From assembly GCA_951406725.2 (NCBI GenBank), contig OX597822.1, forward strand, positions 114,700,001-114,764,000: a DNA stretch of 64,000 bases. Reading direction: 5' to 3'. The DNA is from Octopus vulgaris. Lineage: Eukaryota. Of the stretch, positions 8,818-64,000 are shown in pieces. Below the pieces are notes generated by a model that saw only the letters and a program-made list of their open reading frames with translations, was not told the DNA's origin and ran no database searches. Made by a program: the position numbers and the translations under genes. The first letter of the stretch is position 1; every line of letters begins with the position of its first letter.

Positions 8818-9091
8818 TGTGTGTGTGTGCGTGTATGTGTGCGCGCGCGCGTATCAGTGTATGTGTGAATATGTGCGCGTGCGCTTATTTATTTCATATA
8901 TAATGTTATTGATATAACATATATAATGATATTGAAATAATTTCATTGAAAACAGTTTCCGTAGACGCTATAGTTCACAAAAACATGATCCAATTTCAAT
9001 GAACAAATGCTGATGAAGTCTACAAGGGACACAACTCTTACAAATGCCGAGATGTCTTGAAGAGTTATGTCCCTCACATTAGGAACTGTAT

Positions 9092-9770
9092 TATTATTGC
9101 TGTCGAACAGATTTTCGAAATCAGTAAATGTATTTACTTGAAAATCTTTATATATATATCTTGCACGGTGAGTCGTTCGTCGACAAGCAGTCCCTACAAC
9201 ACGTTGATAATAGGCAATACACCTTGAAACCTAGGTCCGTGTGTGGCATCCGCTTCTTGGGGAATGATCTCCCTTTGCAAGATAGAGGACGCCGTGATGG
9301 CGTCGGCCTATCTGGTGACGTTGATGTTCGCCTGGGGCTAAATGCAACAGTGACACCCCCACCACCCTGCCCTGTCCCTAGCCATATTCAGTTGGCTAAT
9401 GTCCCTTATATTATGGAGCAGTCACTGTCTATATCTCATTTAGAGAATTATTATTGCTGTCGAACAGATTTTCGAAATCAGTAAATGTATTTACTTGAAA
9501 ATCTTTATATATATATCTTGCACGGTGAGTCGTTCGTCGAGAAGCGGTGCCTACCACACGTTGATAATAGGCAATACACCTTGAAACCTAGGTCCGTGTG
9601 TGGCATCCGCTTCTTGGGGAATGATCTCCCTTTGCAAGATAGAGGACGCCGTGATGGCGTCGGCCTATCTGGTGACGTTGATGTTCGCCTGGGGCTAAAT
9701 GCAACAGTGACACCCCCACCACCCTGCCCTGTCCCTAGCCATATTCAGTTTGCTAATGTCCCTTATATTA
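9092..9770. repeat. Near-identical 357-bp tandem duplication
   Basis: Duplicated ORFs start at 9128 and 9485 (period 357) with only a few substitutions. Confidence 0.95.
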
Positions 9771-10451
9771 TCTAATAATTGTTTCAGTCAATATAAACCA
9801 ATCGCGGGAATATACACAGGCGCGCGCACACACACACACACACACTCACACACACACACACACACACACACACCACACCACACATATGCATAGACGTGAC
9901 TGTGTACTTGAAGACGTCAGTTTTAAAACCATGCAGTTAAGGGATCAGTCTAACTTTAAGCCAAATTTGGCATTTATCTTCTAGTTGGGGGTCAGTGTTC
10001 TTCATTTAGTAGATGGAAACTACGTGCCCCACCGTTCCTCTCTCTCTCCCCTCCCTCTTTCTCTCTCTATTCCTGTGAAATAGACATTTACACCTTGTTT
10101 AGGTCAGTAGAATGGCGATAATTTTGTATAAGTGGCTGTTAAAATATTGAATAGCTTCCAAGATAGATATATGGGCTGGTATTTTGTGGTGCCTTCATCC
10201 TTAATTACAACGAATTCCCTATATTACCAGTACTTTAATTAACGGATCCCGAAGATATGAAAGACACGTTTGTGATCAAGGAACCAGAAGATGCTCTGAC
10301 GATCCTGCCAATCAATGTTCAACGTTCTGTTATCGGTTCTAACACTGATACAAGGCAAGACATTTGAGTAAGAGGTACAATATGTCTCAAAATCAAGAGC
10401 TGATCGACGCACTGGGGTTATGTCAATAGTTTGCACCAATTAAAGGTCGCT

Positions 10452-45330: not shown

Positions 45331-45454
45331 AATAATAAAGTAATAATATTAATTTATAATAAATCTCTGAACGAGATATAAGCTACAGTAACACCCACCC
45401 TTAGTGGTTAGCCATATTGAGATGGCAAGTATACCTCACAATAATAATATAGTT

Positions 45455-60539: not shown

Positions 60540-61255
60540 CAAGAGGGGACTGGATGGTTTAAGCTTCTAGAAAATAGTAAGAATAGTATATTCTTGCAAT
60601 TAGATATAGAGAGCTATTGTGTCACTATCAACCCGATCGTCCTTAAACAAGCCCCGATATGTAGCATGAGAAACTCCGGTTTGTCCCGCCGTGAAATAGA
60701 TATTAAACTTGTCGCGCGAGCCACTCTAGTAGATATTGATGGTAGATTATGGAGTAGATTAGAAAGGGATAATGGTTTTGATACAGCAGTGGGGTCATAT
60801 GATTCTGCACCGGTCACAGACCTACTAGGAGTATATATCTTTTCATTAACCCAGTCTTCCTTTCCGGAAGTGACGGGGGTCTGTATAGGGATGACGCCAT
60901 GTTTTTTCTGAACAGAAGTAGCAAAGTACAATTAGAAAGGCACAGGGAAAATTTCTTTAGACTTTTTAAAAATTTAGGGCTAAACATTACTATGGGAAAG
61001 GATTATTGTAGAGTGAATTTACGCTACCTTCTGTCTTTATACTGGTTTATTTGAACCATTTCATAAGCCTAATTGTTATATTAAGTACATTAACGCAGCA
61101 TCTAATCATCCACTGTCGATAATACGGGGATTAGCTTAAAATATTTCTGCAAGAATTTCTAGATTATCCGCTAATAATAAAATTTTCAAATAACATGCAA
61201 CTTATCATAGCGCTGTTTTAGCTTGGGCTGGTTACCGTGAAAAAATTCAGTATGG
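60540..61255 (+). pseudogene. Decayed Penelope-like element reverse transcriptase (resembles the Naiad clade)
   Basis: GWFKLLENSKNSIFLQLDIESY; FDTAVGSYDSAPVTDLLGVYI; after a frameshift GLYRDDAM (60878-60901); FKNLGLNIT; EPFHKPN..YINAASNHPLSII; RISRLSAN; AGY. Frameshifts and TAA stops present. Confidence 0.85.
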
Positions 61256-62432: not shown

Positions 62433-62737
62433 GTAGTCTATATTTATATCTATGTGTACTTATATTTATTTTCTCTTATACATATTCTACTTATTGTATA
62501 ACATTACTCTTTTATGTACACTCCTTTATGTACACTGTTTTGCCCTACATTATTATGTTTAACCTTATAGTTTCTTATGTGGTGGTTTAATAAAGTATGT
62601 GATTGAGTATTATCTGGTAATTGATATTTGATTTCAATGTATTTCTCTATTTTCTTATTTTGTATTATGAATTTGTGGTAAAACATTTTACCTTTGCCCA
62701 TATAATACAGTAAATGAATTGATTGCATCGCAATTCT

Positions 62738-62834
62738 TAACATTTATGTATTAACCTTGCTGGGTACTTCACTAGCAGTATACTGGATATATGTTATCCC
62801 ATGGGGGGTTGCACTCACAACCCCTATCTCAATT

Positions 62835-62880
<46 letters not shown>

Positions 62881-63009
62881 TACATGCATACGTACATACA
62901 TAAATACATACATAACATTTATGTATTAACTTTGCTGGGTACTTCACTAGCAGTATATTCGATATATGTTATCCCATGGAAGGTTGCATTTACAACCCCT
63001 ATCTCAATT

Positions 63010-63063
<54 letters not shown>

Positions 63064-63086
63064 TACATGCATACGTACATACATAA

Positions 63087-63095
<9 letters not shown>
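62738..63095. repeat. About 175-bp tandem duplication containing (TA)n
   Basis: AACATTTATGTATTAAC.TTGCTGGGTACTTCACTAGCAG occurs twice. Confidence 0.9.
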
Positions 63096-63128
<33 letters not shown>

Positions 63129-63293
63129 TTGTTATCGCCATATTAATATGGCATTCTTATAGATATAAGAATAATCGCTGCCGCTGGTCAGCTCCATGAG
63201 GCCACCGCCTTAAGATAGCTATTGATACACGATCTGTATCCATTATAACCTTCGAACAAGGGAGGTCAGCCGCTTCACACTGCCAGTCCGACA

Positions 63294-63331
63294 GCTACAG
63301 ACGCGTTTCGGGGTATTGCCCCTTGTCAATG
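63294..63331 (-). ncRNA. HHR copy truncated in stem I at the inversion junction
   Basis: CA-UUGACAA-GGGG-CAAUA-CCCC-GAAA-CGCG-UC-UGUAGC. Confidence 0.75.
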
Positions 63332-63625
63332 ACCTCCCTTGTTCGAAGGTTATAATGGATACAGATTGTGTATCAATAGCTATCTTAAGGCGGTGGCCCC
63401 ATGGAGCTGACCAGCGGCAGCGATTATTCTTATATCTATAAGAATGCCATATTAATATGGCGATAACAATTATTTCCAGTAAACGCTGTCGTAATCTCTT
63501 TTATAGAGACTTAGTAATTTTAATATTTCTATTATTGAAAACAAGTGGATGTATTCCACTGTAACTAGGTAAATATAAGCCTTCGAACAGAGACGTCAGT
63601 GGCGACACCTGCGGGGTCTGACTGC

Positions 63626-63667
63626 GCTACATTGACAAGGGGCAATACCCCGAAACGCGTCTGTAGC
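63626..63667 (+). ncRNA. Intact type I hammerhead ribozyme, U3:A8 core
   Basis: GCUACA-UUGACAA-GGGG-CAAUA-CCCC-GAAA-CGCG-UC-UGUAGC. Stem I 6 bp, stem II 4 G-C pairs, palindromic stem III ACGCGU, GUC site at 63659-63661. Confidence 0.9.
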
Positions 63668-64000
63668 TGTCGGACTGGCAGTGTGAAGCGGCTGACCTCC
63701 CTTGTTCGAAGGTTATAATGGATACAGATCGTGTATCAATAGCTATCTTAAGGCGGTGGCCTCATGGAGCTGACCAGCGGCAGCGATTATTCTTATATCT
63801 ATAAGAATGCCATATTAATATGGCGATAACAATTATTTCCAGTAAACGCTGTCGTAATCTCTTTTATAGAGACTTAGTAATTTTAATATTTCTATTATAT
63901 ATATATATATGGGGGAGGGGCTGGTTGTGTGTGTGTTTAATTTTGGTATATGGTTTAAAATGATGCATTTTGGGTCATTTTACCATTAATCACACACACG

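Follow-up and report, generated by a model that had tools for sequence, protein, structure and literature searches.

A locus of Octopus vulgaris with a probable 363-nt retrozyme carrying a predicted U3-A8 hammerhead and a PLE-type pattern of insertion ends

Layout of the element and of its hammerhead

The window analysed here is a 64,000-nt stretch of Octopus vulgaris contig OX597822.1 (2.80-Gb assembly, 227 contigs; microsatellite-rich). The element at 63123-63898 was composed of an inverted arm, a partial lap and one full 363-nt unit, and was located between (TA)n tracts. Positions 1-363 of the unit correspond to positions 63536-63898 of the window, and the features are as follows.

63091..63122: left (TA)n target flank
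63123..63331, minus strand: inverted arm (unit 95-303); outermost lies the 'short' 3' end, which lacks the tail and recurs across loci
63330..63331: 2-nt overlap (TG) at the head-to-head arm junction; such overlaps, most of them of 1-4 nt, occur at 54 of 74 inverted junctions
63330..63535, plus strand: 5'-truncated partial lap without a ribozyme (unit 158-363)
63536..63898, plus strand: full unit of 363 nt, 43% GC, longest stop-free frame of 56 codons, no tRNA gene
63578..63714, plus strand: rod extending hammerhead stem I, 63578-63631 pairing with 63662-63714
63623..63625, plus strand: TGC directly flanking stem I, with TAC or TGC at this place in sister families; conserved in alignments
63626..63667, plus strand: type I hammerhead with a U3-A8 core, predicted cut after C63661
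63626-63631 and 63662-63667, plus strand: stem I, GCTACA and TGTAGC, by direct reading
63632-63638, plus strand: core TTGACAA (UUGACAA), U3-A8 in place of C3-G8
63639-63651, plus strand: stem II, with loop 2 CAATA at 63643-63647
63652-63655, 63655-63660 and 63659-63661, plus strand: GAAA, palindrome ACGCGT and GTC triplet, by direct reading
63839..63898, plus strand: optional 'tail' of about 60 nt (unit 304-363) between both fixed 3' ends, as defined from 118 insertions
63899..63910: right (TA)n target flank

A first-pass annotation had described a period of 363 and an inverted copy preceding the unit, and both descriptions held: the lap at 63330-63535 matched 63693-63898 at 204 of 206 positions, and the inverted arm was identical to the reverse complement of 63630-63838 over its whole length (209/209). 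The inverted copy, which had been left uninterpreted, is the most informative part of the element, being a signature of PLE insertion.

The unit contained neither an RT nor a GIY-YIG ORF, and none was contiguous with the unit in the loci screened, so it is not an autonomous PLE. It is non-coding, falls within 150-450 bp and is low in GC, as non-LTR retrozymes are. The locus holds 1.57 direct units with a single full ribozyme, since the inverted arm breaks off within the 5' strand of stem I. With only one full hammerhead, its transcript cannot yield the 363-nt monomer by double cleavage, and a read-through transcript would give a 209-bp hairpin instead. The non-LTR retrozyme reading of the first pass was upheld for the family, on account of its copies, arrays, circular fold and covarying ribozyme, but not for this locus as a source of monomers. 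Immediately left of the element, at 62733-63082, a 175-nt direct duplication (91%) with (TA)n was also observed.

The complete hammerhead that had been placed at 63626-63667 does have the type I layout, with three helices, a conserved core and an open helix I, but its core is not the canonical CUGANGA; it is TTGACAA, a known but rare U3-A8 variant. Its helices are of the canonical 6-bp/4-bp size, and helix III consists of the palindrome ACGCGT only. The complementary flanks proposed to extend stem I formed 44 predicted pairs (z = -7.2, 0 of 200 shuffles as stable). Folding of the unit as a circle, a check recommended with that proposal, gave a stable structure with 65% of its bases paired (z -7.2, 60 shuffles), the linear unit having a z of -8.4. 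By analogy with canonical type I hammerheads, we take the TGC at 63623-63625 and loop 2 CAATA to be a candidate loop 1-loop 2 tertiary contact.

In the MFE structure of the monomer, the core GAC was paired with the GUC triplet, which is an inactive fold, and the active fold cost 1.5-7 kcal/mol more. The MFE structure of one natural two-unit locus (L130), which has a single intact motif, also mispaired the core. We judge that cleavage by the U3-A8 hammerhead would likely be dimer- or protein-assisted. Parts of PMC3088659 describe U3-A8 hammerheads as natural and active in vitro, and parts of PMC4209133 report about 1300 U3-A8 motifs in S. mansoni, with a palindromic helix III that explains dimeric action. 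The octopus motifs have the U3-A8 compensatory pair in common with these natural variants and with the hammerheads of the S. mansoni Cercyon PLE; however, the S. mansoni motifs are minimal, heterogeneous and mostly single, whereas the octopus ones belong to young retrozyme units, which are about 90% identical to their C3-G8 sisters. A search of the literature for a C3U/G8A hammerhead returned none. Elsewhere, 8 of 9 Xenopus dimers failed to cleave, according to part of a preprint (10.64898/2026.07.22.740005).

The Rfam hammerhead models gave no match to the unit at the gathering score, nor up to an E value of 10. Sister family D matched Hammerhead_HH9 (E 1.5e-5) with 35.2 bits, below the gathering score of 52 bits, and the C3-G8 sisters were likewise without a listed Rfam match in the scan that matched family D. 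CUGANGA descriptors and Rfam thresholds would miss the superfamily, and retrozyme counts may be too low. A bacterial promoter scan was rejected as inapplicable to an animal genome.

Copies of the family and conservation of the ribozyme

The results of the copy-number check suggested by the first pass showed that the family is multi-copy: the exact 31-nt core had 216 matches in the genome and the 26-nt unit-junction motif had 1502 exact matches, while the respective controls had 0. Head-to-tail arrays of at least five units were found at other loci, and L188, L189 and L190 carry 4-5 hammerhead motifs, so that tandem units each with a complete hammerhead are present in the family but not at 63123-63898. 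The proposal of a recent insertion with near-identical copies agreed with the identity of the best 40 scored candidates, which was 95-100% across the full unit. The family is dispersed, young, non-coding and 363 nt in unit length, with a hammerhead predicted to be self-cutting. The element belongs to a known class of selfish repeats and shows no hint of serving the host.

Related sequence was found in sequencing runs under four organism labels, none of the listed runs being recorded as RNA. Three of the runs, tentatively taken for RNA, had contigs with pieces of the family, although contigs cannot show RNA ends, strand or circles. The 4 runs inspected among the 24 listed consisted entirely of contigs, with no start, end or joint information at the cut site.

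Relatives of the family are present in the same window. A sister retrozyme with a 357-nt period occupies 9090-9771 with 1.9 units and has plus-strand U3-A8 cores at 9204-9210 and 9561-9567; having two ribozymes, it is more promising than 63123-63898 as a source of monomers. A short inverted fragment of sister families C/D lies at 45356-45440. At another place in the genome, one sister-family insertion with its flanks is present twice, about 61 kb apart and inverted (L071-L074), which is likely a segmental duplication.

Conservation was determined on 181 motifs from 138 loci of family A. Core position 7 varied (C in 147, A in 27 and T in 7 motifs), and positions 3-6, 8 and 9 were fixed in 177-181 of the 181, a conservation that is partly by construction since 60 of the loci, one locus being counted twice in the set, were picked by the exact core. 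A degenerate U3-A8 pattern had 696 matches in the genome versus 30 for its control, several of the matches inspected being chance or unrelated. Sister families with units of 355-375 nt carried compensated changes in stems I and II, and a CUGACGA (C3-G8) sister family was 88-90% identical to a UUGACAA one. Comparison of 10 family representatives showed that 88.5% of cells were paired, versus 28-43% in slid controls, and that 8 of 13 pairs were changed on both sides, the 3-8 pair being UA in seven and CG in three; the structure used derives from the same 10 representatives, and the helix III alignment of one family is faulty. Helix III was palindromic in six families, with a duplex of -6.0 to -15.5 kcal/mol. 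The covariation of stems I and II, the C3-G8 sister at 90% and the variable position 7 argue for a selected ribozyme fold, and on these alignments we judge the fold to be selected.

A further repeat of about 355 nt (L277, L279, L280, L282, L283) has a C3-G8 core and the same loop 2 as the family, and its palindromic helix III is longer and ends with a UA triplet. An AT-rich family matching CTGAAGATTGGCAATA (L269, L278, L290, L291, L292), often present as inverted pairs, showed no hammerhead fold by eye.

Insertion ends and comparison with PLEs

The ends of 118 insertions were mapped (30 best full-length matches, 20 found by the 3' end, 8 by the core pattern and 60 by the exact core). On the ribozyme strand, the 3' ends clustered at unit 298-303 and 360-363, about 60 nt apart, while the 5' ends were scattered. 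Among the 74 inverted insertions, 63 had a long and a short end, 3 had two short ends, none had two long ends and 8 had one other end. The 43 direct insertions ended at the long site in 28 cases and at the short site in 14, which places 42 of 43 at either fixed site; one further insertion was complex. The 60 loci chosen by the core alone, which are the least biased, gave the long and short pairing in 37 of 40, and either arm may be the longer one.

A (TA) run was present at an end in 88 of the 118 insertions and an ATT run in 6 of 118, both counted with no genome-background control. Flank duplications of 12-15 nt were read in 16 of the 118, with end slop allowed, no shuffled control and about 5 of the 16 of low complexity; they were counted as flank duplications of more than 4 bp, most other insertions being unreadable in (TA)n. 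The tail measured about 60 nt in family A and about 39 nt in sister family C. An inverted 5'-truncated arm, an optional tail at one end and an AT-rich or microsatellite target are the characters of PLE-mobilised sequences, and because the long and short ends, the inverted arms and the (TA)n targets make up the PLE pattern, the family was likely copied by PLE enzymes.

For PLEs, PMC8557442 and PMC3846280 describe partial tandems, an inverted copy that is truncated at its 5' end, a tail of 30-40 bp at one end and duplications of 8-10 bp. Sections of PMC11167929 report that the PLE protein nicks and extends both strands and that two internal RNA start sites delimit the tail; they also report that the main template for insertion in vitro is uncut RNA, with a start site alike on both strands. 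The octopus copies resemble the EN+ PLEs of the Neptune, Poseidon and Hydra clades described in these three papers in their partial tandems, inverted 5'-truncated arm, one-end tail, (TA)n targets, duplications on a scale of about 10 bp and hammerhead in the repeat. They differ from them in that the unit has no ORF, the tail is about 60 nt rather than 30-40, the helices are of canonical size and the unit shares no sequence with the four PLE families sampled. The genomic rule of one long and one short end also differs from the assay in those sections of PMC11167929, where starts showed no strand difference.

Comparison with the animal non-LTR retrozymes of Cervera and de la Pena (2020), as given in part of PMC7229834, where mussel repeats measure 350-390 bp, showed that the octopus family has the same kind of non-coding 150-450-bp unit with less than 50% GC, type I hammerhead, tandem copies, self-paired circular fold, flank duplications of more than 4 bp and PLEs in the genome. 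However, the octopus superfamily has mostly the U3-A8 core, and its copies are often of 1-2 units, head-to-head inverted, with two fixed 3' ends; the word 'inverted' is absent from the main text of PMC7229834. The octopus unit is also like the non-autonomous Chlamys elements, for example MRC1 (part of PMC8557442), which are non-coding PLE passengers with pLTRs and head-to-tail insertions. Those elements generally share 3' sequence with their partner, whereas the octopus unit matched none of the four PLE families sampled, and most Chlamys lack canonical hammerheads.

Intact 775-aa RT plus GIY-YIG ORFs are present in the genome. Four PLE families were sampled (p1, L113; p2, L119/L123; p3, L205/L207; p4, L117/L238) among the many more candidates that the genome holds. 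Sensitive BLAST of these four families against four unit types found no shared 3'-end or pLTR sequence, the matches obtained being separate retrozyme copies or chance words. L031, L187, L277 and L278 were considered as pLTR pairs (motifs 2.3-4.6 kb apart) and rejected, with no PLE ORF between the motifs; the RT beside L075 and the ORF beside L205 belong to separate PLE insertions.

We estimate at about 0.7 the probability that the locus is an insertion of a non-LTR retrozyme family with a U3-A8 hammerhead, reverse-transcribed and inserted in trans by a PLE. Multi-unit loci would be transcribed, the palindromic helices III of two hammerheads would pair and the RNA would be cut after GUC, the monomer then likely being ligated into a circle. 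The PLE RT/GIY-YIG protein would nick both strands of AT-rich DNA, and cDNA would start within the RNA, at about unit 303 from one nick and at about 363 from the other. Each cDNA would run for a variable length, past the cleavage site and around the template, and the two cDNAs would be joined head to head through 1-4 nt of microhomology. The window copy is a product and not a source of monomers, because it has a single full ribozyme.

Template of the insertions and alternative readings

The predicted cut site was crossed by 145 of 193 arms; of the 193 arms, 88 were longer than one unit and 10 longer than two. Site 214 was concordant in 30/30 lap pairs and 32/32 arm pairs (50% expected), site 41-44 in 3/3 and 11/11, respectively, and CpG site 317 in 21/24 lap pairs and 14/16 arm pairs (3 and 2 discordant). 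Laps of the five youngest of 11 arrays differed by 0.0-0.4% from one another, versus 1.1-4.8% from other arrays of the same subfamily group, and 5 of the 11 arrays had locus-private variants in every lap. The laps of 6 of the 11 arrays differed by 1.4-4.0%, 5 of those 6 being without a locus-private variant fixed in all laps, and these six are therefore uninformative on the template. The contrast was absent from a cruder all-column test (laps 3.4% and loci 3.7% divergent), for which we hold later mutations, the decay of CpG sites and noise in the alignment responsible. Being too noisy, this test gave way to context-called sites and whole-unit alignments.

The agreement of diagnostic sites within an insertion and the near-identity of laps thus indicate that each insertion copies one unit sequence repeatedly. 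A circular template fits as a simple account of the single haplotype and of the crossing of the cut site, short of proof; the laps could also stem from a homogeneous multimer that was left uncut, from template jumps or from local duplication at a later time. In a 7-unit C3-G8 array (L273:1100-1900), a change of two bases is present in direct laps 1 and 3 but not in laps 2, 4 and 5, a pattern that is unexplained by a single circular monomer.

Arm 5' ends at unit 126-136 numbered 14 versus 6.2 expected, which is suggestive only (six windows, uncorrected). The 5'-end peaks at 160-175 (23 versus 9.0 expected) and at 25-45 coincide with the base of the rod, where stalling of the RT or the alignment itself may have produced them. 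A further peak at unit 1-5 was rejected as an artefact of discarding pieces shorter than 20 nt.

A more specific version, in which the PLE protein copies circular U3-A8 retrozyme RNAs from two internal starts, each serving one DNA strand, and in which the retrozymes have taken over no PLE sequence, is put forward tentatively. If true, it would provide direct genomic evidence for retrozyme circles as the template of transposition, it would derive PLE inverted repeats from two-strand priming with an obligatory long and short start pair, and it would mean that PLE recognition is by RNA structure.

It is rather unlikely that the family, though PLE-mobilised, was copied from an uncut linear multimer or from re-primed RNA, with no circle and with a weak or passenger ribozyme. 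Hammerhead mutants leave PLE insertion unchanged in vitro (in sections of PMC11167929), helix III is minimal and the MFE structure mispairs the core, arrays of at least five near-identical units exist as donors, and the crossing of the cut site by the arms is equally expected from uncut RNA. However, the core and stems covary across families, implying selection on the fold; 5' truncation would presumably shorten arrays at every round unless length were regenerated; and the slightly raised number of 5' ends at 126-136, immediately within the cut site, hints that some templates start there.

It is very doubtful that an autonomous PLE left the unit behind as a solo pseudo-LTR or through deletion, the copies then being 5'-truncated PLE insertions and the result of local minisatellite expansion. 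The insertion grammar of the copies is that of PLEs, and Xenopus retrozymes are homologous to pLTRs in part of preprint 10.64898/2026.07.22.740005, but in both arms the octopus units follow one another head to tail, the PLE ORF fragments nearby were inserted separately into the same (TA)n tracts and have 3' ends of their own and other ribozymes, and the helices are 6-bp/4-bp, whereas the minimal hammerheads of PLEs have a long helix II.

LINE ORFs are abundant near family loci, and twin priming by LINEs gives inversions with microhomology, which would suit a SINE-like element moved by a LINE. Twin priming divides one template into non-overlapping parts, whereas here both arms start at fixed 3' sites, both may exceed one unit and the arms overlap in sequence; there is also no poly(A) tail and no tRNA gene, which makes this origin scarcely credible. 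An assembly artefact or chance palindrome, which the position of the locus between microsatellites near a perfect 209-nt inverted repeat, with no spanning read seen in contig-only data, might suggest, is most improbable, since the two-end rule recurs at dozens of independent loci with different junctions, the arms differ from the partial lap at 2 sites and related sequence occurs in runs of four organism labels.

Mobilisation of animal retrozymes by PLEs was proposed in 2020 (part of PMC7229834), and sections of the 2026 preprint 10.64898/2026.07.22.740005 draw a PLE link from co-occurrence and pLTR phylogeny and state the mechanism to be unresolved; the preprint sampled no cephalopod and does not contain the word 'tail'. 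The link between PLEs and retrozymes is already in print, and the insertion-end evidence appears to be new. The literature on octopus retrozymes, cephalopod hammerheads and inverted or tail ends of retrozymes gave no account of the family or of PLE-type ends, and the main text and one supplement of the octopus repeat annotation literature contained no ribozyme term; part of a squid genome paper lists 235 Rfam hammerhead hits. As subscription papers, Repbase and Dfam were outside the search, the family may be catalogued under another name. The octopus family bears on which enzymes mobilise animal retrozymes and on whether their circles are the template, since the PLE end pattern can be read directly from hundreds of its young insertions, and the long and short rule bears on the origin of PLE inverted repeats. 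An in vitro assay could draw on the start sites at about 303 and about 363, on the non-coding 363-nt unit as template and on several candidate enzymes whose ORFs are intact.

In two PLE families found intact (L113, L116, L119, L123), the 775-aa RT/GIY-YIG ORF is preceded by a further ORF, and the scan showed no hammerhead; their paired 3' ends were about 36 and about 32 nt apart in (TA)n, L116 having one of each by eye. Family p3 (L205:5155-7320, L207-L236) is very young, with 104/104 scored matches 99-100% identical at the protein level. Its open frames reach about 1200 aa, its 3' end in (TA)n is fixed, and it has a hammerhead-like motif with CUGUUGA (A6 -> U). Family p4 (L238, L241, L248, L251, L256, L262) has an asparagine-rich insert, a canonical-core hammerhead with a long stem II and, by eye, two 3' ends roughly 150 nt apart; a fragment resembling the p4 protein (E 3e-6) lies in the window at 61140-61253.
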